From IMG/VR virus record IMGVR_UViG_3300035018_000013, positions 18,054 through 82,053 of that record: 64,000 nucleotides of DNA. One strand, given 5' to 3'. This DNA is from a virus. This document shows, one piece after another, positions 12,264 to 64,000 of this stretch (its first letter is position 1; the number at the start of each line of letters is the position of its first letter). The notes beneath the pieces were generated by a model that saw nothing but the letters and a program-made list of their open reading frames with translations, made no database searches and was not told the DNA's origin. The position numbers were made by a program, and so were the translations under genes.

Positions 12264-12321
12264 AAAAGGTTTTGAAGTCATATCACTGAGGAAAATGAAA
12301 TGAAAAGCATAAGGCTAAAAA

Positions 12322-12528
12322 ATGGAACAACAGAGCTTCAGCAAACAGTATGTTAAAAGCATTGTTAATCTACAGTCTCAGCACTTGTGTCACAGCGTTG
12401 AAAATAAGATGATTTGCAGAGGTGGGCGCGATTTAATGCTGCGAGTCATGTTTGTTCAGAGATTGATTGAAGCGCCGACTGATGAGGCGTTTGATACAGC
12501 ACGAAAAGAACATTTAGAGCAGAAATAA
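12322..12528 (+). CDS. Hypothetical protein
   Basis: ORF ending 2 nt before the DUF488 gene. Confidence 0.45.
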   Translation: MEQQSFSKQYVKSIVNLQSQHLCHSVENKMICRGGRDLMLRVMFVQRLIEAPTDEAFDTARKEHLEQK

Positions 12529-12530
12529 TT

Positions 12531-12926
12531 ATGAAAACTAGCTACTATGCCATCACGCCCGACACGACACTAGGCGCGATCGCCATCAGCCTTTACCCAC
12601 CGCCCAACACTCGCTACCAGCAATACAAATGTCTGGCTCCAACCAAGCGCCTACTCAGCGAATATAAATACGATTTTCTAGACGAGGAGGGTTACACGAA
12701 AATTTATCGTACTCAGTTAGCAGAACTTGATCCGATCGCCGTCTGGAACGTGCTGCACCAAATCGCCGATCCACTTGGCAAGGTTGAGCCAATTCTGTTG
12801 TGCTACGAGCGATCGGGTTCATTCTGCCATCGGCGGATCGTTGCCGATTGGCTTGGTGCAGCAATGAATGTAGAGATTCCTGAGTTTGAAAAGCCGTCTT
12901 CAATCAAACAGATCTCGTTATTTTAA
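12531..12926 (+). CDS. DUF488 family protein
   Basis: AISLYPP...LAPT...ILLCYERSGSFCHRRIVADWL. Confidence 0.8.
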   Translation: MKTSYYAITPDTTLGAIAISLYPPPNTRYQQYKCLAPTKRLLSEYKYDFLDEEGYTKIYRTQLAELDPIAVWNVLHQIADPLGKVEPILLCYERSGSFCHRRIVADWLGAAMNVEIPEFEKPSSIKQISLF

Positions 12927-13264
12927 GGGGGGCAGCGAACCTCCGCCCCACACTCCCCATCCTCAAATACTCCCACCCGCACCGATCGCCCCGGATAGCG
13001 ATCGGTGATTTGTTTGAGCAGGTTTTCTGCCATGTGTTCACAACTTAATCCGCCCATTTCTCCCCCAGGAAAGTTGGTGCGGCAGAAATCTAAGAAATCA
13101 TGGAACTCTACTTCTCTGCAAGAATGATGCAGCTCTAGCTTCACCTCGACGTGAAAGAGATGGCGATGGCGTTGGGCAAGGTAGGCGCGATCGCCCGTTG
13201 CATCCTGCCAATGATGGAAGCCAGGGACTTGAAAGCGGATAATAGCTGAAGATTGAGTTTTCAT
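12923..13264 (-). CDS. dpdL: QueD-like T-fold protein with DpdL signature (putative CDG decarboxylase)
   Basis: FHHW...YLAQRHRHLFHVEV matches LxxxHRHxF; SCEHMAE and VFEDGECGA are T-fold motifs. Confidence 0.7.
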   Translation of the reverse strand: MKTQSSAIIRFQVPGFHHWQDATGDRAYLAQRHRHLFHVEVKLELHHSCREVEFHDFLDFCRTNFPGGEMGGLSCEHMAENLLKQITDRYPGRSVRVGVFEDGECGAEVRCPP

Positions 13265-13286
13265 AATTTAGGGAGAAAAATTGTAA

Positions 13287-13484
13287 GTGGAACTCCAAAA
13301 CATTTTGAATGAGCGGTTTAAGACTTATCAGGATGCGATCACCAAGCATGGTCAAGAGTGCTTACTGATTCATGAATTGCCAAAAGAACCCGTAGGTTCT
13401 GTCAATCCCGTTAGTCATTTTTCAACGACTAGACTGCAATTAATCCCCTCCCTAGATGGATGGCAATATGTGGTGAGCCAGTAG
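13287..13484 (+). CDS. Hypothetical protein
   Basis: GTG start with upstream GGGAG; lies antisense between dpdA and dpdL. Confidence 0.4.
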   Translation: MELQNILNERFKTYQDAITKHGQECLLIHELPKEPVGSVNPVSHFSTTRLQLIPSLDGWQYVVSQ

Positions 13485-13574
13485 GGCGATCGCCCCTAGT
13501 TGGCAACACGTCTGAACAGCCAATGCAGTCCTATTTGGAGAAGATGTTGTCTCATTTGGAGAAGAGGGCGTGCT

Positions 13575-13599
13575 CTTCGAGATACCCGCAAGGGGTCGC
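13575..13599 (-). repeat. Small dispersed repeat copy 2
   Basis: Reverse complement GCGACCCCTTGCGGGTATCTCGAAG. Confidence 0.85.
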
Positions 13600-13609
13600 G
13601 CTATTTTTG

Positions 13610-14569
13610 TCAGGCTTTTGTCGGGTACAGCTCGCAGCCCAACGCTTTAAGTGACTGAATATGATGCCGCCAGTTCAGCATATTCATCCGGCTTTCATAG
13701 GCTGCCAACTGTACCGCCTTATCTGCACCAACTGCCGACTCATGATCACTGCCTAATTCATATCGAAAGTCCAGTGGATAGGGCGAGAACGTTTTGCCAT
13801 CACACCGGGCTTTGTGGCTATCTGCCCAACGAATACCCACCAGCCAACTCGACGAGTCACCAGAGTTAATAGGCATGGCGTTTAGCCACTCATTCGGCGT
13901 TAAGCCCAGCAAATGAATCCACAGATGCGGATATTTGCGATGTCGTTCCCAAGCTGTGGCTACCAGTTGCTTGCGAGTTGCTCGGTCAGCCTGTACAACG
14001 TTGCCGAAGCAGATGCGATCGTAGCGCTCGGCAAGGTAATCAAAATAGTCCCACCCATCGTTAAACGGGTGATAAACAGGAATCGGTCGCAGCCCCATTC
14101 CTTCCAGCTTCGCGCGGGTTTTAATTTTGTTCTCCCGTCCGCCCTGGTCTAGTTCAATGAAGCCCCAGCACTTATCGCCTAACCGTCGATAAATGGCGAT
14201 GTACTGTTCTAATAGTTCATCAAATCCGTCGATTTCATTTGGTGGCAATGCCAGCGCTTGATCCATGTTGCAGCCGTGAGCCTTGGCGTGTTGCTGGGTC
14301 AAGTGGAAGATGCCGGAGTCGATGAAAACCTTTTTGCCCCGATCGCACCATTGTTCAATCAAATCGACGGCACCCGCATTTTGCAATTCATTCACCGCAA
14401 TCAGCAGATGATCATAGAGCGGTTCAGCTAGTGCCAGCCGCCCTGTTCCTGATGCCAGGAAGTAAACATTTTCTTCAGATGGGTCAAAGGTGCCACCGCC
14501 TGTTTTAAGCACGTTGGACACTGCCCACCCCCTTGACGTTCTCGTATTGGTCAAGGATGTGCCCAGCAA
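13610..14569 (-). CDS. dpdA: DpdA-like tRNA-guanine transglycosylase paralogue (DNA deazaguanine insertase); GTG at 14512 is a likely start
   Basis: TGT-fold motifs in order: VFIDSG, FIELDQ, PIPVYH, ICFGN, IHLLG, SGDSSSW; no C-terminal Zn site of tRNA TGTs. Confidence 0.8.
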   Translation of the reverse strand: MLGTSLTNTRTSRGWAVSNVLKTGGGTFDPSEENVYFLASGTGRLALAEPLYDHLLIAVNELQNAGAVDLIEQWCDRGKKVFIDSGIFHLTQQHAKAHGCNMDQALALPPNEIDGFDELLEQYIAIYRRLGDKCWGFIELDQGGRENKIKTRAKLEGMGLRPIPVYHPFNDGWDYFDYLAERYDRICFGNVVQADRATRKQLVATAWERHRKYPHLWIHLLGLTPNEWLNAMPINSGDSSSWLVGIRWADSHKARCDGKTFSPYPLDFRYELGSDHESAVGADKAVQLAAYESRMNMLNWRHHIQSLKALGCELYPTKA

Positions 14570-15374
14570 TGTATTCGTCAGGCTGCACCATGACCAGCGA
14601 TCGCTCTTCTGCCTTGAGAGTCAGTGGGACAAATGGACCGGGATAGGGTGCGAAAATCGCATCTTCTTTCAAATAGCCAGTCCACTTCTGCCAATCAGTC
14701 ATGACATCAGCCACAACCATAATGTGCCGACCCAGGTTCCAGACATCGCCCTTATTAACCTCGTGGCGAGGGTTGGCGATCGTGATTTCTGTCAGTGCCA
14801 GCAAGGAGCCGTCTGATTTCTGCCCTGATTCCTGATGGTCGGGATCTGCTGATTCATCATCTTCAGGTGATCCTGAGTTTTGAGAGGTGTGATTGCCCCC
14901 TGCTGGTGACATGGGCGTGCCATTCTCGCCAAATATTTGTTTATCCTGAAAGTTCAGAACTCCCAAGTTGAAAATGCTGTCACATTCCTCAAGAGAAAAC
15001 CCAGTCAAATCTAAGTCAAAATCAAGCTCCTGTAGAGCTTCTAGTTCCACTTTGAGCGATTCGTAATTCCAATCTGAAATGCCCACCTTATTATCGGCAA
15101 TGCGGCAGGCTTTCTTCTGTGCCGGGGTCAGGTCATCCCGAATGATCACCGGAACTTCTAGTAAATCCAGCTTGCGGGATGCCAGGTGGCGACCGTGCCC
15201 TTTGAGGATTACGCCGTCCTCATCCACAACGATCGGCACATCGAAACCATATTCGATGATTGACCCCGCGATCGCGTCAATCTGGCTCGGTGGATGGAGT
15301 TTGTTATTCAGAGGATAGGGCGTAATCTTATCGATCGGCACCCAAATAATTTCAGGAGAGAACTGCTTAGCCAT
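14505..15374 (-). CDS. ParB/Srx-like N-terminal domain protein coupled to dpdA
   Basis: IDKITPYPLNNKLH...SIIEYGFDVPIVVDEDGVILKGHGRHLA...ACRIADNK; GDVWNLGRH linker as in ParB-methylase fusions. Confidence 0.85.
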   Translation of the reverse strand: MAKQFSPEIIWVPIDKITPYPLNNKLHPPSQIDAIAGSIIEYGFDVPIVVDEDGVILKGHGRHLASRKLDLLEVPVIIRDDLTPAQKKACRIADNKVGISDWNYESLKVELEALQELDFDLDLTGFSLEECDSIFNLGVLNFQDKQIFGENGTPMSPAGGNHTSQNSGSPEDDESADPDHQESGQKSDGSLLALTEITIANPRHEVNKGDVWNLGRHIMVVADVMTDWQKWTGYLKEDAIFAPYPGPFVPLTLKAEERSLVMVQPDEYIAGHILDQYENVKGVGSVQRA

Positions 15375-15434
15375 GCCGCAGCCTCCTAGTTAGAGTATTC
15401 ATTTCTTACCTCGTAGATGCGCTCTAAAATTCCC

Positions 15435-15878
15435 TCAGCGAACCAGGCTTGTGACCCGTTCAGGCGACTCGAAAACATCTACTCGCAGTAATTTAATATG
15501 GGGGTCAAGCTGAATTTTGGCAAAATACAGGCACAAATCTTCTGTAGTGCCGCCAGCCAAATCTTGATGATCATTAATTAACTCAGGTAGCTCAGAACAA
15601 GAATACTTGAGCAAGTTTTCTTGTTCAATCATGTCTAAGCCATACATACCAGAGATGCTTCTTTCTGCTTGCAAATGCAGCGTCACCCGAAAATCATGCC
15701 AATGGTCATCCTGCCAAATGGGCGGGTTAAAGTGCCTGCGCCTGAATGAGTGGCTAATCTGATAGTGAAATATCACAGGGCACTCATGGGCGCAGCCTTG
15801 AGAATAGGGTACGGAAAGCCCTCGCAATGCCTCTGGGTAGTGCGATCGCGCCTTAAAGCTTGGCTTGAAGTTTTCCAT
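15435..15878 (-). CDS. queD: QueD-like 6-carboxytetrahydropterin synthase (atypical, no active-site Cys visible)
   Basis: H-x9-HWH triad, TTEDL (PTAEN-like), VFESP; coupled to queE. Confidence 0.65.
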   Translation of the reverse strand: MENFKPSFKARSHYPEALRGLSVPYSQGCAHECPVIFHYQISHSFRRRHFNPPIWQDDHWHDFRVTLHLQAERSISGMYGLDMIEQENLLKYSCSELPELINDHQDLAGGTTEDLCLYFAKIQLDPHIKLLRVDVFESPERVTSLVR

Positions 15879-16510
15879 TACTGCACCCCAATAAACTTAT
15901 GGGTTTGCAGACTTAATCTAAACTTAGGATGCTGTTTGAGCAGGTCTAGAGTAAGTGGCAGAGTGCGATCGCGCTCATTCCATTCAGGTTGCAAACAAGC
16001 ATTCCGAAGCGCAAGGTGCTTGTAGTAAAAATCAACTTCTTGCCCGGATGAAATCACAATCTTAATTTCATTAGCCCGCTGCCACATCTCTGAATGAACG
16101 GGATACTTCGGAGATAAATGCTGCTTTGGAGAAAGCGTCACCCATGTCGGATTTGGAATATTCTGCCAAAAAGCACCAGAGGTTTCAATCTGCACTTGTC
16201 GCCCAGTCGCGGCGATCGCTTCTACCAACATCGGCAGTTCTTTGTGAATGAACGGCTCCCCGCCAGAGATAACAACATGGGGCGATCGCAGTTCGTTGAT
16301 TAATCCTGCGATGGTGCGATCGCTTCGAGGTGTACTTTTACCGCCGTCTGCATAACCTGTGTCACACCAAGGGCAAGCAACAGGGCAACCTGCCAGCCGA
16401 ATAAAATCAGCGGGAGTGCCAGCCCAATAACCCTCACCCTGGATTGTTTCAAAGAATTGCTCGTGAATTGGCAGAGTAGTCTGCTGCGTAAATAGAGTCA
16501 AATTTTTCAT
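15878..16510 (-). CDS. queE: 7-carboxy-7-deazaguanine synthase, radical SAM
   Basis: [33 protein letters not shown]; VVISGGEP; IETSG; LSPK; LQPE; LSLQTHK. Confidence 0.95.
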
Positions 16511-16576
16511 AAACCGTTAATAGATGCATGGTGGATCATTCCCTAGTGCATTCTTAAACAAGTTCAGGATAAACCT

Positions 16577-16774
16577 ATGGATACTCCCGTTGAATTGTCA
16601 CTAGAACAGAAATTTAGTCTGCGATCGTTTGAGACTCAGGTAGAGCGAATGAGCCATGAACAGGCGCAGGATTTCCTGGTTAAGCTCTACGAGCAAATGA
16701 TGGTCAGGGAAACTATGTACAAAAATTTTCTTAAACATGAATGGGGGATTGGAGAGCCTAAAATTAATCCCTAA
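16577..16774 (+). CDS. nblA: Phycobilisome degradation protein NblA (host-like copy)
   Basis: PVELSLEQKFSLRSF...MSHEQAQDFLVKLYEQMMVRE...LKHEWG. Confidence 0.95.
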   Translation: MDTPVELSLEQKFSLRSFETQVERMSHEQAQDFLVKLYEQMMVRETMYKNFLKHEWGIGEPKINP

Positions 16775-16826
16775 CTCTAATCCCAGAACCGAAATACTTG
16801 AGCAATTTTTCTATTGCTAATTCGGC

Positions 16827-17348
16827 ATGATAATTTTAGTTATGCCACTAGAGTTATCTCGCTATCCTAAGGACTGGAAAAGGTTCTCTCATAGGCTAAA
16901 GCAACAGGCAGGTTGGCAGTGCCAATGGTGCGATCGCCCCTGTCGTCAGCCCCAAGAATCCTGGTTACAGTTCAAACTGCGCGTCTGGTACGCGTATCCC
17001 TTATACCAGGCGACTAAACTCTACTGCGAAATTGACCAGAACGCCTACTATTTTTTGCTCTCGTTGGCACATTTGGATCAAGATCCTGGCAATAGTCAAC
17101 CTGACAATCTACGTTGCCTTTGTCTGCTCTGCCATCTCAATTACGATCGCCAATTCTTCCACTTCAACCGCCAAACTAAACAAGAGCGCCGAGGGCAACT
17201 TAACTTCTTCAAGCCTGAACTGCTTTTTGCCCAGTCGCTAGCGGGCAAAGGTAAAGACCCCTCTCGAATTCAGCTTGCCATCCCTAAAAAAGAAACCCCA
17301 TCACGGGGAGCAGCCGTGATGAGGAATTGCCAGTCTAGCCGTAAATAA
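16827..17348 (+). CDS. HNH endonuclease; ATG at 16842 is a likely start
   Basis: YPKDW...AGWQCQWC...LSLAHLDQDPGNSQPDNLRCLCLLCHLNYD. Confidence 0.8.
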   Translation: MIILVMPLELSRYPKDWKRFSHRLKQQAGWQCQWCDRPCRQPQESWLQFKLRVWYAYPLYQATKLYCEIDQNAYYFLLSLAHLDQDPGNSQPDNLRCLCLLCHLNYDRQFFHFNRQTKQERRGQLNFFKPELLFAQSLAGKGKDPSRIQLAIPKKETPSRGAAVMRNCQSSRK

Positions 17349-22907: not shown

Positions 22908-23413
22908 CGCCTGAATAATTGCTTAAGTTTGATTTTTTGAACGCGATTCGTGTTCCTCAAAGACTTATCCCACACGCCTCGCCCTGGAATTCTAATAGTC
23001 GTTTTACTGGGCTTAAAATAAACTTTATACCGTCCAAACCAGCGCCGCATCCTCGGCGTAATCTGAATCGTTGCTCCAGAGTTCTGAACTTTAGTAATCA
23101 TCGTCGGTCTGCCGTTAGGGATGCCCAGCAATGATTTAGAAGCGTTCCCCATTCGCTTATGTCGCACCTGAATATGCTTGCGAATGCCTGAGCCGTTGGG
23201 GTTGCCCCGCAGGGTATAAAGATGGAGGGTGAGCGATCGCAATCTCGGTGAATGCTTGCCTCTGCCCTGCGTCCTCAAATGATCCAACATATTGTTATTC
23301 ATCAGCTCAGCTCCCTCCCTTGCCCATTGCTCCCCCTTATCTGGAAGGGCTTTAAGGCTTTGCAGCTTTTGATAAAGCTTGTCCCATTGCGATCGGTGTG
23401 AAAAATTGGGCAT
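22904..23413 (-). CDS. Neck/virion morphogenesis protein (HK97 gp10 / Mu gpG-like)
   Basis: Basic; ITKVQNSGATIQITPRMRRWF...TIRIPGRGVW pattern; start chosen at MPNFSH to avoid overlap with the divergent gene. Confidence 0.6.
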   Translation of the reverse strand: MPNFSHRSQWDKLYQKLQSLKALPDKGEQWAREGAELMNNNMLDHLRTQGRGKHSPRLRSLTLHLYTLRGNPNGSGIRKHIQVRHKRMGNASKSLLGIPNGRPTMITKVQNSGATIQITPRMRRWFGRYKVYFKPSKTTIRIPGRGVWDKSLRNTNRVQKIKLKQLFRR

Positions 23414-23450
23414 GATTCTAGAATTATTGCTCAGTATTATCAGCTTACCC

Positions 23451-24119
23451 ATGGCAAAGAAGGAACCCGTTAATCTCGAAGTCCCAAAGAACCTGGTCTT
23501 TAGAGAACAGCTAGAAATCCGCTACGTGCTAGTAGATGATCTCATTCTGCTAGATCAGAATCCCAAGCTGCACGATATTGGCAAGCTGGTAGATTCGATC
23601 GTGGAAAATGGATTCCTTGACCCGCCCAAATGGGATACGAAGCTGAACGGCGGCGCGGGCGGCATCATTGAAGGAAACGGGCGATCGGAAGCCCTCAAAT
23701 GGATGCAAGAGCAGGGTCGAGAGATTCCTAGAGGCATTGCAGTCAATGAGCAAAACCTGTGGGCGGCACCTGTTATTTTTGGTTGCGATGCCCGTTCTGA
23801 GATTGCAGCAAAACGATATGCGATCGATCACAATAATCTCGTTATGGCAGGCGGTAACTTTTCCGCCCTAGACATGAGCCGTGCCTATGATGCCGAGTCT
23901 TACATCGCCATGCTTCAAGAGCTTGATCAGCAGCAATTTTTGCCCCTAACGCTAGATGGTGAGGACTTAGAGCTTTTGCTAGGGAAGCTGGAGGGCGATC
24001 GCGCTGCTGGAAATGGTGACGACGATCTGCCTCCAAATCATGAAAATATAAATGAACCTAAATTAGGCAAAACTAATTGCACTTGTCCAAGCTGCGGTTT
24101 TGAATGGGAGAAAGATTGA
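23451..24119 (+). CDS. Second ParB/Srx-like protein with C-terminal CxxC zinc ribbon
   Basis: LVDDLILLDQNPKLHDIGKLVDSIVENGFLDPP...IIEGNGRSEAL...AIDHN; CTCPSCGFEW. Confidence 0.75.
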   Translation: MAKKEPVNLEVPKNLVFREQLEIRYVLVDDLILLDQNPKLHDIGKLVDSIVENGFLDPPKWDTKLNGGAGGIIEGNGRSEALKWMQEQGREIPRGIAVNEQNLWAAPVIFGCDARSEIAAKRYAIDHNNLVMAGGNFSALDMSRAYDAESYIAMLQELDQQQFLPLTLDGEDLELLLGKLEGDRAAGNGDDDLPPNHENINEPKLGKTNCTCPSCGFEWEKD

Positions 24120-39000: not shown

Positions 39001-39388
39001 ATGCACTGAAAACAACCCGCCGATCGCTACTCCTTAATCGCTTTGCTGTTGCCTGATCTAGCCCATGCTTGCCTGTAGCCCGATCAATCTTCTTTCGTGG
39101 GTCTTTGGCGTTCCGATCGATATTGCTGCCATCGCCAATCAGCACGCCACCCCGTAGGCGATCGCACTCTACCAATTCCATGCCCTTGTACAAGCATTCG
39201 GATTCCTCAAAAGCTCCATTTGGGCTAAGTTCTTGATACGTTAACCTGTAGCGAACCAGCGTCCATTTGCCGATTTGTGAATACCAGAGAATAGAGAATT
39301 TCTGCCCTGGTAAAAGATTGAGATTGTTCGGGGTGGTGAAGAAACGAGGGTGAAGCATATTGTCTGAATGATGGGAAACCTGATTCAA
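38999..39388 (-). CDS. Hypothetical protein; ATG at 39358 is a possible start
   Basis: ORF divergent from the second nblA. Confidence 0.45.
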   Translation of the reverse strand: MNQVSHHSDNMLHPRFFTTPNNLNLLPGQKFSILWYSQIGKWTLVRYRLTYQELSPNGAFEESECLYKGMELVECDRLRGGVLIGDGSNIDRNAKDPRKKIDRATGKHGLDQATAKRLRSSDRRVVFSA

Positions 39389-39407
39389 ATTCTTATTTTG
39401 GAGAGCT

Positions 39408-39584
39408 ATGGAACAGCCCGTTGCATTGTCTTTGGAACAGCAATTTAACTTGCGATCGCTTGAAGAGAAATCAAAGCATCTACCCCTAGAACAAATTCAA
39501 CGGATGCTGATTGAAACGTATACTCAGATGATGCTTAACGATGCAAGGTACAAAGCTGAACTGAAAAAACAGTGGAGAATTTGA
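39408..39584 (+). CDS. nblA: Second NblA (58 aa, not in ORF track)
   Basis: My translation: MEQPVALSLEQQFNLRSLEEKSKHLPLEQIQRMLIETYTQMMLNDARYKAELKKQWRI; GGAGAG Shine-Dalgarno; 27/58 identical to the 16577 copy. Confidence 0.85.
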   Translation: MEQPVALSLEQQFNLRSLEEKSKHLPLEQIQRMLIETYTQMMLNDARYKAELKKQWRI

Positions 39585-56849: not shown

Positions 56850-59800
56850 TTATCGCGCCTTTTCCAGGGTTGCCCTCAGAATATCCACGACTTGACGCTC
56901 TAGCAGGGGAGCAATTTTATCCATGAACTCGGACACGATCGCCATAGAATCTTGATTAGAGCGATCGCCCCCCTGCCCAATTACAATGTCCCCAAAATTG
57001 AGTTGTAAAGAGATAGGGGGAAGAGAACTATTGCCGCGATCGCCCACGGGAACCGGGACGGGTAGGGGAATAGGAATGGGTGGAAGTTGGGGGATGAGCT
57101 GCATTAAAGAGGTCGCGCCGCCGTTCATGCCCTCTAGAATCGGTCTGAATATTTGGGAGGCGATCGGGTTGAGAATGAATTCTCCAGGAGTAACTAATGC
57201 ATTTTGACTATCTGTACCTCCAGAGCCTTGAACTAATCCACCCTTAGCAAAGCGCTGGACGGGCGTTTGATTTTGCTGGGGCTGAGGCTGAACGCCTGAG
57301 ATTGCGGTGAAGATGGAGCCGAGAATTGGGATACCTGCGATCGCTTGCCCGATACCTTGAATGAAGGATTGAATCGCTCTAAAGGGTGCAGAAATCGCGT
57401 TAGCGACTAATCCTGGTAGGTTAATAAAGAATGAGGCAATGCCTTGGATTAACCCCACGAAGGTCAGAACGGGCTGGATTAATGCTGAGTAGAATGCGGT
57501 GCCGATCGCCTGAAAGATGCCAACGAATACGCCCAAAATGCGGACGGGAATCATCAGAACTGAAACCAGAATACCGACGATGCGAACGATACCTGCGATC
57601 GCCAGTCCCACAACTCGGATGCCCGTCGAGATCACAGAGAAGATGATTCGGATGGGCAAGAATGCCAACTCAAGCGCGGCTTTTATGACGTTTAATGTGC
57701 TAGCGCTCTGATTTGTATTCTGATTGAACATCGAGAAGAACCCTTGCACAGCTTGGATCATGGGCTGTAGGGGTGTAATAAAAGCATTAAATAAATCTCC
57801 GAATGCTCCCCCAATGTCGTTAAACGCTGCACCGATCGCCTGAATCGGTTGCATGAGAATAGAACCAATAATGCTGGCGATCGCGCCTACGGTTCCAGAG
57901 ATGATTGACCAGATACCGCCCAGAACTGAAGTGATGAAACCAAACGCGCCATTAATAACCTGCCGAATGCCCATAAAGTTAGTTTGATAGGCAACGAAGA
58001 CCAGGGATGCAGCCGCCAGGAATGCTAGGACAAATGGCAGCATCGGACCTGTTACCGCCAACCACATGGAAGATGCGGCGGTAGCGACTCCAGCGAAGGA
58101 CGTTCCGACGATACCGGAAACGGTTGTACTAACTGCTCCCCAAATCGCACTAAAGACACTTAAGCCACCAAAGATGGCGGACAGATTTAATCCCATGCCA
58201 GAGGCGATCGCAGTGACGGAGGCAAACCCGCTTGAAACAATACCGCTTGCTGTCGAGGTGATTAACGCCCAAATACCAGATATACCGCCTGCGGTCGTAT
58301 AGGTTGCAACTAGCCCCGCCCACATTGAGGACGCGGTTGCAGTAACGCTTGCGAAACTAGCTGAGACGAAACCAGAGACGGAAGAGGTAACGCCGCCCCA
58401 GGTCAGGGTGCCTAGATTCAATGATGCAAATGAACTGATCATTAGCGGCATTGTGGCAATTAAGCCCATAACGCCTGATGCTAGAGTTGCGAATCCATTA
58501 ATCGGCGCGGCTAAACCAGGGGCGATCGTGCTGAGAACCGCCGCCAGTGAACCCGCCGCATCCGTAGCAGTAGAAAGGCTTTGGGTCGCTTTTTGTCCAG
58601 TTGTGACAGCAAGCGCGGGCGCGTCGTTATTCGTTTTAATAGCTTGGGAAATACCCGATTGAGGACGAACAGGGGGGCGCTCCTGCGTTGCGATCGGGAT
58701 AGGATTAGCGATCGGGGTGGCAATATTTTGGACGGGATTTGAGCGCGAGTTGAATAGGCTTGAAGGCTGACCGATAAAGCGTTGCAAGCGGTTGGGCGTT
58801 GCCTGCGGTTGGGTGTTTGTATTTTGAGAATCAATTAATCTTTTAGTTTGAATCGAGGCAATTGATTGGGCTTGCTCTGGGATAGAAAGGGGTTGAGGCA
58901 AATTAATAGCTTGAGAAATACCCGCCGCTGATTTAACGCTGGTTTGATTTGCCGCAGCGGGGGCGTTCTTAAGCTTTTGATCGAAATTGACCAGCTCTTG
59001 AGCTTCTGGAATCGTGGCGGTTTTGCCCCGAGCTTTCATCCCGACCGCTTGAGCTAGTTTACCGATTGGGGAACTGGCGATCGCAGCTCCAACACCTTTA
59101 ACCTTGGCTTCAATCTGAGCAATGATGCCGATGAACTTTTCCAGCATTGCTCTGGGAGAACTGAAGGCAGAACCGATGACGACCCCGAAGCCTGAGAAGA
59201 TTTGCTTCAAGCCTTGCAGTAATCCACTCACCATCTGAACGGAGCCGCCCAGTGTCGTACTGATTGTGCTGGCGATCGCTTTGACTACCTGACCCGCGCC
59301 GCCGAATACCTGCTTAAATCCAGTGCCGATTCTGCTCAGGTTGCCTGTGAAGACTCCAGCAATAATATTGCCGATACCTTTCAGAATATTAATTAATCCT
59401 GAGAGGGCTTGAGTGATGCCAGAAATTAACCCTCGGATAATTTGAGCGACGGCGGTGAAAATTGTCTTTAATCCTAGGAAATTTCTAGAGACTAGGAAGA
59501 CAGCCAGCCCCACGCCTGCAAGCGCTAAGCCAACCGGGGCAAGTGCAATCAAGCTAGAGAAGCCGAAGGATGCAGCCGCTAGAGTGAGATGATTAAACGC
59601 TTTTCCAACGGTTTGACCCGCGATCGCTGCCATTCCTGACATTGCAGTTGAGAGAAGTTTTCCAGCCCCAACCCCGTGATCAACTAACCCGCCCAGGAAC
59701 CCGCCGATCGCCCCGACCGCCTTTTGCCAAGCGATCGGAATCTTGATGGTAGGCGAATGATTTAGAGCATTAATTAATCCTTGCCCTGCGTTCTCTCCAC

Positions 59801-62800
59801 CTTGAACTAACCCGCCCAACATTCCACCAAACCAACCGGAAAACCCTTGCCATGCACCGCTAATAGTAGAAACTGCTAACTGCAATGCTCCGGTCACGAC
59901 CCGCGCCATATCTGCCAGAACTCGGAAGGGATTGAGCAGGTAGGAGATTAATTGACCGAGGGCGATGAATGCTGAGCCGACCGCTTGCACGATCGAGCGG
60001 ATGCCTAGGAAGTTATTCTTGAACCCAAAATAGAGCAGAGCAACGCCGCCAGCGATCGCCGCAATGATAGGCAGGAATGGCAGCACGACTGGGATGATGG
60101 CTGAGAAGGAAGCGATCGCCGTTGTTGCAAACCCACTCATGACCGGAATTAAGGCGCTAATCGTAGTTATTGCGGTTGAGCCAAAGCCAGCAATGATAGG
60201 GGCGATCGAACTGAAACTCTTGCCAATCATGGGAATAAATGACTTTGCAGTTGTCCCAAGCCCCTTAATTCCGGGGGCTAAACCTGTAAAGAATTTCTTG
60301 GCTTCTGGCAGAGAATCAGCGAGGGTGCTGGCGGTATCAGTCAGGTCAGAGAGCATGAATAATGGTGTCGCAAGCTGCGGTGCAAAGTTGCTCAAGCTCA
60401 TGCCGATCGAGCTGCTGGTGCTACCCAGCGCGGCGGCTCCTTTACCTTTTGCTGCCGTCCTGAGATGTTGCCCGATCGCTCCCATTTTTGTCTTTGAGCT
60501 TTGCGCGGCGTGATTCATTCCGGCGGTAATGCGATCGCCAATCTGATGCCCCGTAACTCCGGCGGATTGCCTAATCCCGTCCATTTCGGCGCGAATCTTA
60601 TCCCCGGTCATTGCCCATTTCATTCTGATCTGAAAGGTCGGGCCCGGTGAAGCCTCGGCTAAATTCGATTGTAAATCGCGTCCCGCCTGCTTGCTCTTGC
60701 CCTTGAGGAATCCAAACACGCTGCTAAGTTTGTCCCCAACGCCTTCCCACAGTGCTTTAATTTTGTCCACTACGGCGGCAAAAGTGGTGGGGATGGTATG
60801 AACAAAGCTCATGAAGCTTTCCAGAATTGGCACTTGGTTAAGACTGGTTAGCCCTGTCCAAACTTCTTTAATTTTCTGAACGCCAGTGGTAAAAATTGTC
60901 CCAATTTGGTGAACAGATTGCCCAACTTTGGCAATAATTTCCCCAACTTTGGCAGGCAAAATTTCCAATGTTGCCAAATTTATAGTGGGCAATTTGAACG
61001 CTAAACCGTGCCAAATGTCTTGTGCCTTCTGGATTCCAGCGCTGAAAATGTTTTCAAATTGGGCAATGACTTGACCAATTTTGGCAGGCAAATTTGCTAA
61101 ATGTGCCAAATTTACATCAGGCAATTTTAGGGTTAAGCCTGACCAAAATTGTTGAATTTGGGCAAGGGCGCTATGAACGCGATCGCCCACTGCATTAAAA
61201 ATTGCGCCTGCCGATTGGGGTAGCACTGACCAGGCGCTTTCAATGCCAGAAGTGATGAGGCTGGCTGTTTTACCAATGCCCTTAAACGTGTTTGTGATTA
61301 AGGAGAATACTTGCTCAATCCCTTGCCCCACGCCACGAGCAATCCGCAATAAGCCCTCAAACGTCTGTCCAATTCCTGAACCAATGCGGGTAAATGCTGC
61401 CTTTATTTGTTGACCGCCTGACTCGAATGCCGTAACAACTGTGGTAAATCCTGCTCTAATCTTGAAGAAATCGCCCGTCAGAGCTGCGGGGATACCGCCC
61501 AGGATTTGAGTTAGACCTTTGGCTAGTTCGTAGGTAGTCTTAATCAGGGCGGCAACCGATTCGACCGCGCCACGCACGATATTAAACAAGCCACTGGCGG
61601 TTTTAATTAAGCCCTGAATAATTGTTCTGATGCCCAGGAAGTTAGAGGCGATCGCCAGTACTCCCAAGGCAATCCCCGCCACAATTAGAATGATGGGGCT
61701 GAGCGAAGTGAGGGAGGCTAGACCGAAGGCAAAAGCGGAGAATGTGGCAGCGTTAAACTGTCCCACTGCCCCACCGATCGCCTCTCTTAATCGTTCTACC
61801 GGGGCAATCTGCAAGGCTTGAGCAATCGTCCTGGTGAGCTGTCCCCAAGATTGAGCGATCGCGGTGCCAGATTGGGCACCTAGAGTAGCAATCTTAGTCG
61901 CTGCGCCTGCAAACCAGTTAGAAAATGCCGTCCATTGCGATCGCGCTGGGGCCGTATCTTGAGTAATTGTCTGGGTGATTGTCTGATTCGCTAACTCAGG
62001 AATCAATTGATTCTTTAATTTTGATTCGTTACTAATAGCGGTTGAGATTGGCTGAGGTGGAATGGATTGGGCAGGCGATTGGGCAGGCGATTGGGCGGCG
62101 GCTTGGACGGGGTTTTGAGGCAGGGTGGGAGCGGGTTGAGATTGGGTTTGGATCGGTTGAGCTTGGGCGGGGCTACTGGGCAGGACGGGCTTTGAAACTG
62201 GGGTGGCAACCAGTTGAGATTGGGGTTGAACAGGATTAGAACGGCTAGAGGGAGCAGACTGGATTTGATTAATGGCATTGGATTTCTGAGCCTCAAATAC
62301 GGCTTGATTAACTAGAGGTTGCTCGATCGGGGACTGTTTAACAACAGGCGGCTTAACGGGTTGAAGGACGGATTCGGCGACGTTAGACGGAGGGAGTGAG
62401 GCGGGTTCTACCTTTGGCTTCCGCCCAAAAATATTGCTGACTTTATCGCCCAGTTCAGAGAGTTGAGTAAAGGGGGATAGCAACATCTCTCGGACGGCTG
62501 TACCTGCTCCGGCGATCGCAGTGATCATGAATTTTAGACCGGAGGAAATGAGGGTAATCACCCGCTCAATCACCCGGAATGGCATCAGGAGGGTGAAGCC
62601 AAGGACGCTGGCAATCCCTTCTACTAGGGTTCTCACTCCTAGAAAATTACTGCGGAAAGCATAGGTGAGGAGGGCGATCGCGCCTACCGCTAGAGCTACG
62701 CCTGCAATGAAGGGAAGCAACGGAGCGATAACGGTAGTCCAGGCGGCGCTGGCGGCGGTTGCAACCATGGGAAAGACGGTTGAAGCCATCAGGCTTAATT

Positions 62801-64000
62801 TAGGGATGAGCTGCCCAGATAAGCCCTGCAAGCTAGAGAGCATGGATAGACCCGCACCTTTTAGAGGGGCAATTCCTTTCTTTGCCGCATCTCCCAAGCC
62901 TGCTAATTTAGGGGTAAACTCAGTAAACATTTTTTTGGCAGCGGGAATTGATTCTGAGAGAGAATCAAAGCTGCTGACTAAATCTCCAGCGATAAAGAGG
63001 GGGGCGGCAAGCTGGGGGGAGAAATTGCTTACCACGGAGCCGAGGGAAGAGAAGCCGCCGCCCACCTTATTGAGGCGATCGCGCAAAACATCCCCGAATT
63101 TGACCTTGCTTAAACTGCTGCTAATTTTGCCGCCTGTCGATTGAGCATGAGCCGATAAATACTCCATTTGCCCAGTCAGGGCGATCGCCAGCGCCTTCCA
63201 TTTTTGGCGAATTTGAAAAGTCGGACCCGGAGAATTTTCGGCAAGATTTGAGACTAATTCCTTGCCTGTCTTTTTGCTCTTACCTGTAATCCGATCCATA
63301 AACCCGCCCACCGAGCTAGTTAGACCGCTCCAGATAGCTTGGACGCGCTCGACGGCGGCGGTAAATAGCGCCGGAATCGTGTGAATGAAAGCCTTAAACT
63401 CATTCAGGACAGGAACTTGATCGAGGCGCTGAGTGAAGCTGAGCCAGCCGTGGGATACCTTTTCTAGGGTGGCTGTCACTAACCCCGGTAACTGCTCAAA
63501 GACGGCGGTTTTCAGGTGGATGGAATGAGAGTTAAGGCGATCGGTAAAGCTCCGCATCGTATCACCCGCTCGACTGGTGATGGCTGTAATGATGCTGGGT
63601 AGACGGGAGAGCTTAGCCAGATTTAACGAGATTGGGACAGCGCCGAGATGATTAGTAAAAAGATTAATTGATTCTTTTGCTCTAGCGGTAATCCCGGTGA
63701 GGATATTAGGCAGTTGGGAAATTCTAGAGAGATTTAAGACAACTGGGAGAGAAGCGATCGCCCGGATGCCGCCCGTGATCACAGACTTTGCTCGCTCAAA
63801 TAATTGATTGATTCTAGAAAATGATTGCCGCAGGGATTCTAGATTAAGGTGAAGTTTTGCGCCTGAGAATAGCTTACCAACAGCCTGTAGGACAGATGAG
63901 GCGATCGCGCCCACCCCTTTGAACGTTGAGGTTGAGACGGTTCTCACGAGGTTAAACGCCGATCGCGCTCCATCGCCTATCCGCCCAAAATCACCCCGCA
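56850..64000 (-). CDS. Tape measure protein, more than 2380 aa, 5' end outside the window
   Basis: Frame has no stop from 63947 to 64000; amphipathic A/G/I-rich repeats; C-terminal RFAKGGLVQGSGGTDS...TPGEFILN. Confidence 0.85.
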   Translation of the reverse strand, partial: RGDFGRIGDGARSAFNLVRTVSTSTFKGVGAIASSVLQAVGKLFSGAKLHLNLESLRQSFSRINQLFERAKSVITGGIRAIASLPVVLNLSRISQLPNILTGITARAKESINLFTNHLGAVPISLNLAKLSRLPSIITAITSRAGDTMRSFTDRLNSHSIHLKTAVFEQLPGLVTATLEKVSHGWLSFTQRLDQVPVLNEFKAFIHTIPALFTAAVERVQAIWSGLTSSVGGFMDRITGKSKKTGKELVSNLAENSPGPTFQIRQKWKALAIALTGQMEYLSAHAQSTGGKISSSLSKVKFGDVLRDRLNKVGGGFSSLGSVVSNFSPQLAAPLFIAGDLVSSFDSLSESIPAAKKMFTEFTPKLAGLGDAAKKGIAPLKGAGLSMLSSLQGLSGQLIPKLSLMASTVFPMVATAASAAWTTVIAPLLPFIAGVALAVGAIALLTYAFRSNFLGVRTLVEGIASVLGFTLLMPFRVIERVITLISSGLKFMITAIAGAGTAVREMLLSPFTQLSELGDKVSNIFGRKPKVEPASLPPSNVAESVLQPVKPPVVKQSPIEQPLVNQAVFEAQKSNAINQIQSAPSSRSNPVQPQSQLVATPVSKPVLPSSPAQAQPIQTQSQPAPTLPQNPVQAAAQSPAQSPAQSIPPQPISTAISNESKLKNQLIPELANQTITQTITQDTAPARSQWTAFSNWFAGAATKIATLGAQSGTAIAQSWGQLTRTIAQALQIAPVERLREAIGGAVGQFNAATFSAFAFGLASLTSLSPIILIVAGIALGVLAIASNFLGIRTIIQGLIKTASGLFNIVRGAVESVAALIKTTYELAKGLTQILGGIPAALTGDFFKIRAGFTTVVTAFESGGQQIKAAFTRIGSGIGQTFEGLLRIARGVGQGIEQVFSLITNTFKGIGKTASLITSGIESAWSVLPQSAGAIFNAVGDRVHSALAQIQQFWSGLTLKLPDVNLAHLANLPAKIGQVIAQFENIFSAGIQKAQDIWHGLAFKLPTINLATLEILPAKVGEIIAKVGQSVHQIGTIFTTGVQKIKEVWTGLTSLNQVPILESFMSFVHTIPTTFAAVVDKIKALWEGVGDKLSSVFGFLKGKSKQAGRDLQSNLAEASPGPTFQIRMKWAMTGDKIRAEMDGIRQSAGVTGHQIGDRITAGMNHAAQSSKTKMGAIGQHLRTAAKGKGAAALGSTSSSIGMSLSNFAPQLATPLFMLSDLTDTASTLADSLPEAKKFFTGLAPGIKGLGTTAKSFIPMIGKSFSSIAPIIAGFGSTAITTISALIPVMSGFATTAIASFSAIIPVVLPFLPIIAAIAGGVALLYFGFKNNFLGIRSIVQAVGSAFIALGQLISYLLNPFRVLADMARVVTGALQLAVSTISGAWQGFSGWFGGMLGGLVQGGENAGQGLINALNHSPTIKIPIAWQKAVGAIGGFLGGLVDHGVGAGKLLSTAMSGMAAIAGQTVGKAFNHLTLAAASFGFSSLIALAPVGLALAGVGLAVFLVSRNFLGLKTIFTAVAQIIRGLISGITQALSGLINILKGIGNIIAGVFTGNLSRIGTGFKQVFGGAGQVVKAIASTISTTLGGSVQMVSGLLQGLKQIFSGFGVVIGSAFSSPRAMLEKFIGIIAQIEAKVKGVGAAIASSPIGKLAQAVGMKARGKTATIPEAQELVNFDQKLKNAPAAANQTSVKSAAGISQAINLPQPLSIPEQAQSIASIQTKRLIDSQNTNTQPQATPNRLQRFIGQPSSLFNSRSNPVQNIATPIANPIPIATQERPPVRPQSGISQAIKTNNDAPALAVTTGQKATQSLSTATDAAGSLAAVLSTIAPGLAAPINGFATLASGVMGLIATMPLMISSFASLNLGTLTWGGVTSSVSGFVSASFASVTATASSMWAGLVATYTTAGGISGIWALITSTASGIVSSGFASVTAIASGMGLNLSAIFGGLSVFSAIWGAVSTTVSGIVGTSFAGVATAASSMWLAVTGPMLPFVLAFLAAASLVFVAYQTNFMGIRQVINGAFGFITSVLGGIWSIISGTVGAIASIIGSILMQPIQAIGAAFNDIGGAFGDLFNAFITPLQPMIQAVQGFFSMFNQNTNQSASTLNVIKAALELAFLPIRIIFSVISTGIRVVGLAIAGIVRIVGILVSVLMIPVRILGVFVGIFQAIGTAFYSALIQPVLTFVGLIQGIASFFINLPGLVANAISAPFRAIQSFIQGIGQAIAGIPILGSIFTAISGVQPQPQQNQTPVQRFAKGGLVQGSGGTDSQNALVTPGEFILNPIASQIFRPILEGMNGGATSLMQLIPQLPPIPIPLPVPVPVGDRGNSSLPPISLQLNFGDIVIGQGGDRSNQDSMAIVSEFMDKIAPLLERQVVDILRATLEKAR
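62065..62100. repeat. 12-nt tandem repeat (three units) in the Pro/Gln-rich tape measure linker
   Basis: GATTGGGCAGGC twice plus GATTGGGCGGCG, encoding AAQS-PAQS-PAQS. Confidence 0.85.

Follow-up and report, generated by a model that had tools for sequence, protein, structure and literature searches.

The five-gene cassette at 12923-16510 of the window (the whole 64,000-nucleotide stretch analysed, positions 18,054 to 82,053 of IMG/VR record IMGVR_UViG_3300035018_000013) is probably a DNA-hypermodification module of an integrated temperate cyanophage, which would make 2'-deoxy-7-deazaguanine (dDG) by means of a two-protein machine composed of a DpdA transglycosylase and a ParB-like protein (here DpdAx and ParBx). 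During lytic growth, host FolE would convert GTP to H2NTP, the phage QueD-like protein and/or host QueD would supply CPH4, phage QueE would form CDG, and DpdL would strip the 7-carboxyl from CDG to give 7-deazaguanine. DpdAx, its C-terminal hairpin and helix gripped by the C-terminal domain of the probably NTP-binding ParBx, would then swap guanine in double-stranded phage DNA for 7-deazaguanine after replication, and the resulting dDG would blunt restriction enzymes and other defences that read G.

Cassette layout and the prophage

The ORF list gives five intact ORFs, all on the minus strand, as a sequence-only reading of this DNA had described, and profile and family searches upheld the identities that it had assigned:

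15878-16510, minus strand: queE, 210 aa; CDG (7-carboxy-7-deazaguanine) synthase, radical SAM
15435-15878, minus strand: queD-like, 147-aa T-fold protein; probable CPH4 synthase variant in which WxxxHWH replaces CxxxHGH
14505-15374, minus strand: parB-like (ParBx), 289 aa; predicted partner of DpdA
13610-14521, minus strand: dpdA (DpdAx), 303 aa from a probable GTG; putative DNA 7-deazaguanine transglycosylase
12923-13264, minus strand: dpdL, 113 aa; T-fold QueD paralogue, proposed CDG decarboxylase

Both overlaps claimed for the cluster were found. One base (15878) belongs both to the stop of queE and to the start of the queD-like gene, and the parB-like gene overlaps dpdA by 65 nt if the latter is read from TTG 14569, from which its ORF is open (13610-14569, 319 aa), or by 17 nt if read from GTG 14521. 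The GTG is the probable start (303 aa), as it is preceded by an AAGGGGG ribosome-binding-like run and agrees with the start points of homologues; the 17-nt overlap also occurs in relative L013. The motifs quoted earlier are present in the translations (IDSG, ELDQ, PVYH, HLLG and DSSSW in the 319-aa protein, HWH in the 147-aa protein). A gap of 345 nt separates dpdL from dpdA, so the two are not translationally coupled in this prophage. The same gene set was seen again in more than 100 independent loci, indicating that the arrangement is not due to chance.

The element is 101 kb long and is integrated at tRNA-Pro in a cyanobacterial chromosome. Exact 56-bp direct att repeats lie at C28:268289, inside tRNA-Pro, and at C28:369248; a divergent phrog_1 integrase-like gene adjoins the tRNA-Pro repeat, and host genes lie beyond both repeats. 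These repeats and the neighbouring integrase-like gene bear out the description of the phage as temperate, and head, portal, baseplate, terminase and lysis genes are encoded by the prophage.

A search at Pfam cut-offs placed no queC, folE or queF within the prophage and, apart from one additional weak PF06508 match, found matches only on contigs C4 and C26, confirming that queC is missing from the cluster and from the rest of the element. The host operon queE-queD-queC-queF is complete. FolE2 is absent, and the folE match lies off the prophage, in the host, which is consistent with the earlier proposal that FolE is borrowed and suggests that the host supplies it.

Predicted enzymes leading to the free base

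QueE matched TIGR04322 (6e-40, 137 bits, under the equivalog cut-off of 200), PF04055 (5.8e-11) and phrog_2076 (3.4e-36), contains the CxxxCxxC motif (GCPVACPWC) and is 40% identical to host QueE on contig C4. The QueD-like protein is more divergent, scoring 22.3 bits against PF01242, where the cut-off is 22.4, and giving a phmmer match (8e-4) to the PTPS-like protein PDB 2dj6. Its Zn-ligand residues His43, His59 and His61 are retained, while Trp55 takes the place of the essential Cys of E. coli QueD. Members of this family are rare, at 16 among 5.8 billion proteins, and the host copy, located within the queE-queD-queC-queF operon, is 45% identical to the phage protein. The earlier observation that the CxxxHGH Cys is lacking (HWH) thus stands, but the differing chemistry suggested from it is less likely, because a similar copy sits in the host operon, and comparison of the two copies suggests that the unusual motif is probably characteristic of the lineage.

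The 113-aa protein carries LAQRHRHLF, which fits LxxxHRHxF, defined as the DpdL signature (PMC10516641). It matched ACP17 DpdL (tblastn 3e-15), phiST CGPG_00067 (tblastn 7e-4) and phrog_17812 (1.1e-15), and retains all 27 positions with a conservation of 90% or more among 63 non-redundant DpdLs, in agreement with its earlier assignment as DpdL. The role of DpdL as CDG decarboxylase is a proposed one; the authors' model places the reaction on the free base, and dDG was undetected in E. coli expressing phiST or ACP17 dpdL with dpdA (PMC10516641).

Gene content was compared among 108 loci of the DpdAx clade, 57 of them with wide flanks. DpdL was found in 86 of the 108, QueC in 9, and both together in none, which points to DpdL as filling the step after CDG that is held elsewhere by QueC. 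The make-up DpdL, QueD, QueE and FolE accounted for 46 of the 57 wide-flank loci. Within the cyanobacterial subclade, dpdL is only loosely coupled to dpdA.

The putative transglycosylase and its predicted ParB-like partner

DpdAx matched phrog_887 (5.6e-22) and had no match in Pfam or NCBIfam. Its AF2 model (pLDDT 93.7) adopts the TGT fold (Z 17.2, rmsd 3.5, 260 aligned). In profile comparison by hhalign it matched the DpdA of Iggy (99.2%) and of JenP1 (99.3%) and gave no match to the host tRNA TGT, supporting the claim that the TGT-fold protein is a DpdA and not a tRNA TGT; on these profiles, DpdAx groups with the proven DNA-acting DpdA1 enzymes, apart from the host enzyme. Insertion of dPreQ0 in DNA has been reported for Iggy DpdA (PMC10484667). 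Residues D84-S85-G86, E139, D141, H219, G222 and D238 are unchanged across 61 sequences, and the catalytic Asp motifs DSG and GDSSSW are both invariant and aligned with those of Iggy DpdA. Among 50,697 GenBank phages, there was no close relative and no homologue above 28% identity. DpdAx thus appears to represent an unclassified, DpdA1-related clade, undescribed in the literature searched. In the DpdAx tree, QueC-type and DpdL-type members are interleaved, and therefore the base preference of the enzyme is not readable from its sequence.

ParBx matched phrog_620 (2.4e-45) and consists of an N-terminal ParB/Srx domain with a conserved GxxRxxA motif (G59-R62-A65), a disordered linker and a conserved C-terminal alpha/beta domain (about 185-289). 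In its AF2 model (pLDDT 85.6), the fold neighbours of the N-domain are PadC (Z 12.2), KorB (11.8), pNOB8 ParB-N (11.7) and sulfiredoxin (11.3), and the protein probably binds NTP, whereas the best structural Z for the C-domain was only 4.8. ParBx lies directly upstream of DpdAx in 93/93 informative loci. The predicted DpdAx-ParBx complex scored 0.84 (runs 0.78-0.84; best control 0.02), a mark attained by 58 of 80 complexes with solved structures and by 2 of 110 mismatched pairs, this calibration being approximate because the prediction ran on self-made alignments. The two proteins are thus predicted to bind each other. This linkage with predicted binding, and the mutual exclusivity of DpdL and QueC, go beyond the literature searched; the obligate ParB-like partner, which the sequence-only reading did not pick out, is the most novel part of the system.

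The base probably inserted and comparison with known systems

The likely product, by analogy, is dDG. We consider it unlikely that CDG itself is inserted to give dCDG, as in Sulfolobus virus STSV-2, with DpdL acting on DNA-borne CDG or otherwise than by decarboxylation. dCDG does occur naturally in viral DNA, Cui et al. thought that DpdA3 may insert CDG as the common precursor, the decarboxylase role is only proposed, and the coupling of dpdL to dpdA is loose in the cyanobacterial subclade; however, phiST, with equal gene logic, has dDG and undetectable CDG, the presence of DpdL in QueC's slot in most loci fits a base-level step after CDG, and the authors' model has DpdL working on the free base. 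Host queC and queF could drain CDG to preQ0. Quite unlikely, too, is the reading that the phage merely raises CDG, which host QueC, with or without QueF, converts to preQ0 or preQ1 for insertion by DpdAx as dPreQ0 or dPreQ1. The full host operon, the QueC genes adjoining some DpdAx-clade members, and the insertion of dPreQ0 or dG+ by Iggy and the 9g group, the closest relatives to have been characterised, would agree with it, but it leaves a fully conserved DpdL without a role, and reliance on QueC is hard to square with the mutual exclusivity of the two genes over 95 loci.

The prophage could also be a domesticated or decaying relic whose cassette no longer works. HIP1 density is higher in the prophage than in the rest of the genome (2.1 versus 1.4 per kb), suggesting long residence, and folE is absent though it occurs in most relatives' cassettes. 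Nevertheless, the five ORFs are intact with every family-invariant residue kept, the structural, terminase, lysis and integrase-like genes and the exact att repeats are present, and the folE-less arrangement is a stable lineage trait because four other cyanobacterial elements (72-79% DpdA identity) have it, so that we judge a relic very improbable. Hardly probable at all is an auxiliary metabolic module boosting host tRNA queuosine, as proposed for cyanophage Pan1, and leaving DNA unmodified. Such genes are so interpreted in published cyanophage papers (PMC9837993), and QueE and the QueD-like protein resemble host queuosine genes, but the transglycosylase has no Pfam TGT match and its profile finds DpdA1 enzymes but not the TGT of the host, a full-length TGT (515 bits) is already present in that host, and neither the ParB-family partner nor DpdL has a part in queuosine synthesis.

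If dDG is inserted as we prefer, the predicted role is anti-restriction protection of phage DNA. The closest parallel in gene content is the lytic Bacteroidota phage phiST (FolE, QueD, QueE, DpdL, DpdA3), in whose DNA dDG was measured and CDG was undetectable (Cui, Hutinet et al., NAR 2023, PMC10516641). Both systems lack QueC and combine an LxxxHRHxF DpdL with QueE, a QueD-type protein and a DpdA-family enzyme, and dDG is the product expected of both. In contrast to phiST, the prophage is integrated in a cyanobacterium, has no phage folE, its QueD-like protein lacks the catalytic Cys, its transglycosylase is not DpdA3 (hhalign 2%), and it has a ParB-like partner gene not shown in the phiST cluster annotation. 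The closest sequence relatives of DpdAx are the DpdA1 enzymes of the 9g/JenP1 group and Pseudomonas phage Iggy (dG+ / dPreQ0), at hhalign E about 1e-20 and 22-24% identity, which is too low for subfamily assignment; the motifs LDSG, RP.P..H, H..G.T and S.DSSSW are common to them, but their clusters carry QueC or Gat-QueC and FolE, with neither DpdL nor a ParB-like gene.

The bacterial DpdA-DpdB pair of Dpd restriction-modification (Gedara et al., NAR 2023, PMC10164549) likewise joins a TGT-fold transglycosylase to a ParB-fold NTPase, and the N-domain of ParBx shares the structural neighbours reported for DpdB, namely PadC, pNOB8 ParB, Atu1540 and A. thaliana sulfiredoxin (PMC10164549). ParBx differs in having the ParB-type GxxRxxA where DpdB has DGQQR, and a small alpha/beta C-domain with no clear fold match where that of DpdB is SspE-like and helical. 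The prophage system is phage-borne, has no DpdC or restriction arm, and its base is probably DG, not preQ0. Among cyanophages, the T4-like Synechococcus phage BUCT-ZZ01 (ON615601) has a DpdL homologue (30% identity) by QueE, QueD and FolE, but is lytic, encodes folE itself, has a QueD of the canonical type and is without a close DpdAx counterpart. Its set is annotated as hypothetical or queuosine genes, DpdL being unannotated, and no paper on its DNA modification was found in the literature searched. The suggestion that such a pathway is uncharacterised in a cyanobacterial temperate phage needs the qualification that the pathway itself is already published and that a DpdL gene set is present in this lytic cyanophage; the prophage cassette adds a member to the pathway.

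The cassette and its prophage

The sequence-only reading had described five minus-strand genes of 7-deazaguanine metabolism, and our ORF listing returned five frames at exactly its coordinates. The cassette and its immediate neighbours, in window positions, are the following.

Genes of the cassette and its flanks
15878-16510, minus: queE; TIGR04322 6e-40, phrog_2076 3.4e-36, CxxxCxxC present
15435-15878, minus: queD-like gene, PTPS T-fold protein; PF01242 22.3 bits, gathering cut-off 22.4
14505-15374, minus: parB-like gene; phrog_620 2.4e-45
13610-14569, minus: dpdA; phrog_887 5.6e-22 (a "queuine tRNA-ribosyltransferase" PHROG), no match in Pfam or NCBIfam
12923-13264, minus: dpdL, 113 aa; phrog_17812
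12531-12926, plus: DUF488 protein gene; PF22751 ("active DUF488-N3" subclade) 1.5e-8
16577-16774, plus: first nblA-like gene; PF04485 1.6e-26
16827-17348, plus: HNH endonuclease gene; phrog_1571 2.3e-14

The stop of queE and the start of the queD-like gene have one base in common. TIGR04322 is the best model for QueE and scored 137 bits, under its cut-off of 200, and the CxxxCxxC is that of radical-SAM enzymes. Although the frame of dpdA extends back to TTG 14569, homologues start near residue 18-25, and GTG 14521 is preceded by an AAGGGGG run; counted from this GTG, dpdA overlaps the parB-like gene by 17 nt, the same as in the nearest relative. A promoter and terminator scan of 12300-17000 gave counts no higher than in shuffled sequence. 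The DUF488 gene converges with dpdL, whose stop it overlaps, and since none was found beside the cassette among the other loci compared, it is taken as a chance neighbour. The HNH endonuclease gene lies just upstream of the cassette, and one is also near the cassette of a relative, locus L013. The cassette was in only one sequencing run, probably the source sample, available as contigs.

In genome G000 (4.9 Mb), the window corresponds to positions 286514-350513 of C28, a contig of 520 kb. A tRNA-Pro gene lies at C28:268268-268342, and exact 56-bp direct repeats at C28:268289-268344, in the 3' part of that gene, and at 369248-369303. These att repeats bound 101,015 bp and lie 18 kb to the left and 19 kb to the right of the window, so that the whole window is inside the element. 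Host genes stand on both flanks (subtilase, sulfite reductase and BioD on the left; AMP-binding protein and glycosyltransferase on the right), and head, portal, baseplate, tail, lysis and terminase genes are found between the repeats. Together with an integrase-like gene, this bears out the earlier statement that the phage is temperate. That gene is divergent: no PF00589 tyrosine integrase was detected on C28, and the att-adjacent gene matched only the PHROG integrase family.

Other features of the prophage
C28:268461-269579, beside attL: divergent integrase-like gene, 372 aa; phrog_1 integrase family, 1.1e-6
C28:273303-277853, left arm, early region: SNF2-family helicase and PAPS-reductase/DUF3440 protein
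window ~39384-39581, plus: second nblA-like gene; phmmer with the first nblA-like gene, 1.5e-11
window 56850-63947, minus: giant ORF, 2365 aa, adjoining the large terminase gene

In the genome, chance alone would give 0.013 copies of the HIP1 motif (GCGATCGC) per kb; the observed density is 1.4, and in the prophage it is 2.1. This density and the nblA-like genes are consistent with a cyanobacterial host and long residence in it. The cassettes closest to this one belong to an Oscillatoriales MAG and to a contig of Leptolyngbya. The PAPS-reductase/DUF3440 protein could be part of another nucleic-acid modification or regulation module; considered as a QueC, it was rejected, being of a different family without a match to the QueC model. 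The prophage is complete and apparently inducible, and offers a setting in which to examine such a modification alongside lysogeny.

A distinct clade of predicted DNA transglycosylases

The protein of the 319-aa frame is a DpdA, related to DpdA1 yet too distant to be filed there. This identification rests on a tRNA-guanine transglycosylase (TGT) fold, invariant residues, a profile match to the DpdAs of Pseudomonas phage Iggy and of JenP1, and the lack of a match to the host TGT. In alignment A4 of the clade (61 sequences), D84-S85-G86, E139, D141, H219, G222 and D238 are invariant. When the AlphaFold (AF2) model (pLDDT 93.7) was compared with solved structures (VIA), the best 50 were all TGTs, and the Z. 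mobilis enzyme (2z1x) aligned over 260 residues with Z 17.2 and rmsd 3.5 Å; a profile built from the DpdA alignment found no PDB sequence, so the TGT relationship is shown only by fold comparison. By hhalign, the profile matched Iggy DpdA at 99.2% and JenP1 DpdA, a 9g-type DpdA1, at 99.3%, and the host TGT at 0.8%; the grouping with tRNA TGTs that the sequence-only reading had named as a refutation was thus not found. Iggy DpdA has been characterised as a DNA transglycosylase that gives dPreQ0. In the profile comparison with Iggy and JenP1, the LDSG block and the S-x-DSSSW block are both aligned, with the catalytic Asp motifs DSG and DSS standing opposite LDSGAF and SCDSSSW of the Iggy protein.

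The profile did not match phiST DpdA3, the 424-aa neighbour of DpdL in ACP17, or the host TGT, and BLASTP found nothing significant against phiST DpdA3, the ACP17 424-aa and 342-aa proteins or the 416-aa protein of BUCT-ZZ01, all neighbours of DpdL. PF01702 has no match on DpdA; it scores 515 bits on the host TGT. Among the proteins compared (from Iggy, JenP1, phiST and ACP17), the nearest subfamily is DpdA1, at only 22-24% identity. The family is extensive yet lacks annotation: clustering at 50% identity gave 579 clusters with E up to 0.001, and for 167 clusters E was no higher than 1e-30. No Pfam domain was present in the 120 homologues listed, and the 50,697 GenBank phage records contained no homologue above 28% identity. 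As the clade has no Pfam or NCBIfam match, mining rules that tell DNA modification from secondary metabolism by DpdA models may misfile its cassettes. The predicted activity, judged from sequence, is guanine exchange in DNA, and the cassette is very probably a DpdA-type DNA deazaguanine module.

Loci encoding the clade were taken from species genomes (26) and IMG/VR (80), and their six-frame ORFs were scanned with HMMs built in this analysis. A parB-like gene lies directly upstream of dpdA, mostly overlapping it, in 93/93 loci, namely those with at least 900 nt upstream out of 108 with a strong DpdA. Among the 108 loci, 86 contain DpdL, 9 QueC, none both and 13 neither, most of the last on short or cut contigs; as many loci are mutually related, the counts should not be read as independent events. 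In loci with wide flanks, DpdL accompanies QueD, QueE and FolE in 46 of 57 and QueC accompanies the same three in 4 of 57. The arrangement of the window (QueE, divergent QueD, ParB-like protein, DpdA and DpdL, no FolE) is found in another 4 of the 57, and all loci of this arrangement are cyanobacterial or unassigned.

In the tree of 88 non-redundant DpdAs, QueC-linked members are scattered among the DpdL-linked ones, at five or more distinct positions, indicating that the swap of DpdL and QueC was repeated. This alternation supports a position of DpdL at the step after 7-carboxy-7-deazaguanine (CDG), and the base preference of DpdA is for the same reason unreadable from sequence. In many actinobacterial loci (L020-L034, L090 and L094, of Kitasatospora, Streptomyces and Amycolatopsis), the parB-like gene is apparently followed by a tandem pair of DpdA paralogues, and in locus L066 the parB-like gene and the DpdA-QueC pair each appear twice; such a count may be inflated in high-GC DNA, where long stop-to-stop frames overlap.

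Precursor supply and predicted product

DpdL was described as paralogous to QueD, with LxxxHRHxF in the place of CxxxHGH, and was proposed as the CDG decarboxylase behind the 7-deazaguanine deoxynucleoside (dDG) measured in phiST DNA (Cui, Hutinet et al., PMC10516641). The signature given in the sequence-only reading agrees with that paper, and the 113-aa protein fits it with LAQRHRHLF (L29-AQR-H33-R-H35-L-F37). By tblastn, this protein matched ACP17 ASD50405 (3e-15) and phiST CGPG_00067 (7e-4), the two DpdLs named in PMC10516641. H33, R34, H35 and F37 are retained in all 63 non-redundant DpdLs of related cassettes; conservation among them reaches 90% or more at 27 positions, including H17, H33-R-H35, F37, S74-C-E76 and E101-D-x-E104, and the window copy keeps 27/27. 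The published DpdLs accompany DpdA, QueE, QueD and FolE in the absence of QueC; the prophage has DpdA, QueE and the QueD-like protein and no QueC, and its FolE would come from the host. Heterologous expression yielded no dDG, and decarboxylation of CDG by DpdL is unproven in the literature (PMC10516641). This chemistry, never demonstrated, is the main weakness of the chain proposed below. The strict alternation of DpdL and QueC is independent genomic support for the proposed role, and for work of the kind in which the phiST and ACP17 enzymes gave no result in E. coli, the cassettes supply numerous further orthologues.

The QueD-like protein has W55 at the position of the catalytic Cys of CxxxHGH, the motif reading W-QDD-H-W-H in a local-pair alignment. 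In an alignment with canonical QueDs, the Zn ligands H43, H59 and H61 and the C-terminal E113 and E137 are kept. Trp occupies the Cys position, and the His ligands and C-terminal Glu residues are retained, in all five phage copies (the window and four other cyanobacterial cassettes) and in the host copy, which is encoded in the following operon.

G000:C4:57832-60496, outside the window: host operon of queE, Cys-less queD-like gene, queC and queF

The host queD-like gene, with the motif WxxxHSH, shares its rare type with the phage copy, and the two proteins are 45% identical; phage and host QueE are 40% identical, and the order queE-queD is alike in both. We had expected this type to be a common cyanobacterial trait. 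This was ruled out by its count, 16 proteins in 5.8 billion, and by a sample of 150 other cyanobacterial genomes, in which neither the phage nor the host copy as query found any. The scarcity indicates a trait of a rare lineage, not of the phylum. The simplest reading of the sequences is that, in this subclade, a queE-queD pair of rare cyanobacterial type has taken the place of the customary QueD-QueE-FolE block; the Cys-less protein would in that case continue to act as CPH4 synthase.

The whole-genome search placed folE on contig C26, the sole copy and a host gene, and a tandem PTPS and tgt on C21. FolE2 was not found in the host genome. Presence of queC elsewhere in the phage, the other outcome weighed in the earlier reading, was not observed: the prophage has none and queC is on C4. 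A weak PF06508 match lies at C28:184491, 84 kb outside the prophage.

Base modification with 7-deazaguanines serves phages in escape from restriction enzymes and Cas9, and such bases are useful in DNA technology. In the proposed chain, host FolE would supply H2NTP, the QueD-like protein would convert it to CPH4 and QueE would form CDG; DpdL would then give 7-deazaguanine (DG), and DpdA, held by the ParB-like protein, would exchange it for guanine in duplex DNA. We regard the whole chain, ending in dDG, as fairly likely. If DpdL lacked the proposed activity, the product could be dCDG; the undemonstrated chemistry leaves room for this, and the alternation of DpdL with QueC speaks for a step after CDG, so we consider dCDG unlikely. 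The host operon could in principle bring in QueC and thereby lead to dPreQ0 or dPreQ1, the former being the base inserted by Iggy DpdA; with DpdL and QueC together in none of the 108 loci, this is quite unlikely.

That the prophage or the cassette is a relic is very improbable: the att repeats are exact, the virion genes are present and all conserved DpdL positions are kept. Even less credible is a module directed at tRNA, which the contrasting hhalign results for Iggy DpdA and the host TGT oppose. The chain ending in dDG remains the preferred reading. The pathway as such is already published, and the lytic cyanophage BUCT-ZZ01 in GenBank carries an unannotated DpdL set. What was found in no paper of the searchable literature is the DpdA clade, its constant ParB-like partner with the predicted complex, the DpdL/QueC alternation and the host-type Cys-less QueD.

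The proposed ParB-like partner compared with DpdB

The 289-aa ParB-like protein (ParBx) was modelled with pLDDT 85.6 as two confident domains with a disordered linker between them. In alignment A5 (53 ParBx sequences), G59 shows no variation and R62 almost none; they belong to GxxRxxA (KGHGRHLA), the nucleotide-binding motif of ParB CTPases (motif as in PMC10164549), and the C-terminal 100 residues are the most conserved part. The N-domain resembles PadC (Z 12.2), KorB (11.8), pNOB8 ParB-N (11.7), A. thaliana sulfiredoxin (11.3) and Atu1540 (7.5). The C-domain (207-289) is predicted as alpha/beta and its best score was Z 4.8, to unrelated Rossmann-like domains, so that the model gave no convincing fold match.

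A methyltransferase remnant of phage ParB-MTase fusions was suspected in the C-domain from GDVW.LG.H..ADV and FAPYPGP (in the place of DPPY). The idea was dropped: the phrog_498 match is limited to the ParB part, the fold search gave no methyltransferase above Z 3.3, and tblastn of the C-domain against GenBank phages gave nothing. JenP1 gp33, the product of a small gene overlapping the start of JenP1 dpdA, proved unrelated to ParBx. A second ParB-like gene is present in the window.

23379-24119, plus: second ParB-like gene, 246 aa; phrog_620 9.6e-16, 69.7 bits against the ParBx model

It lies on the opposite strand within the minus-strand head-tail block, with no DpdA adjoining.

Prediction of a DpdA-ParBx complex gave a score of 0.84, with a range of 0.78-0.84 over three runs, and the best control reached 0.02; the mark of 0.84 was reached by 58/80 solved complexes and 2/110 mismatched pairs, a calibration that is only rough because our own alignments were used. 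The confident predicted contacts join DpdA 249-310, a hairpin and the long C-terminal helix, to ParBx 185-272 in the C-domain. The predicted complex supports binding of the two proteins, and they would offer a defined two-protein complex to purify. The literature searched contained no paper on a ParB-like partner of a phage DpdA. Such a partner suggests why some phage DpdAs may lack activity when expressed alone.

A comparable known protein is bacterial DpdB, a ParB-like ATPase required by bacterial DpdA for preQ0 insertion, whose fold neighbours include PadC, pNOB8 ParB, sulfiredoxin and Atu1540 (PMC10164549). ParBx likewise has an N-terminal ParB/Srx-fold domain. However, the DGQQR NTPase motif of DpdB is not in ParBx, which has the ParB-type GxxRxxA, and the C-terminal domain of DpdB is helical and homologous to the SspE endonuclease domain, whereas that of ParBx is predicted to be alpha/beta. 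ParBx may work like DpdB and, for these two reasons, is not itself a DpdB. We tentatively suggest, as a possibility somewhat short of an even chance, that this widespread, uncultured clade is an obligate two-subunit DNA transglycosylase in which a ParB-family NTP-binding clamp or slider hands DNA to DpdA, docking by way of an undescribed C-terminal domain. Because DpdL and QueC were swapped repeatedly within the clade, one machine would accept DG or preQ0, and the pair would be the phage counterpart of DpdA-DpdB, arisen separately.
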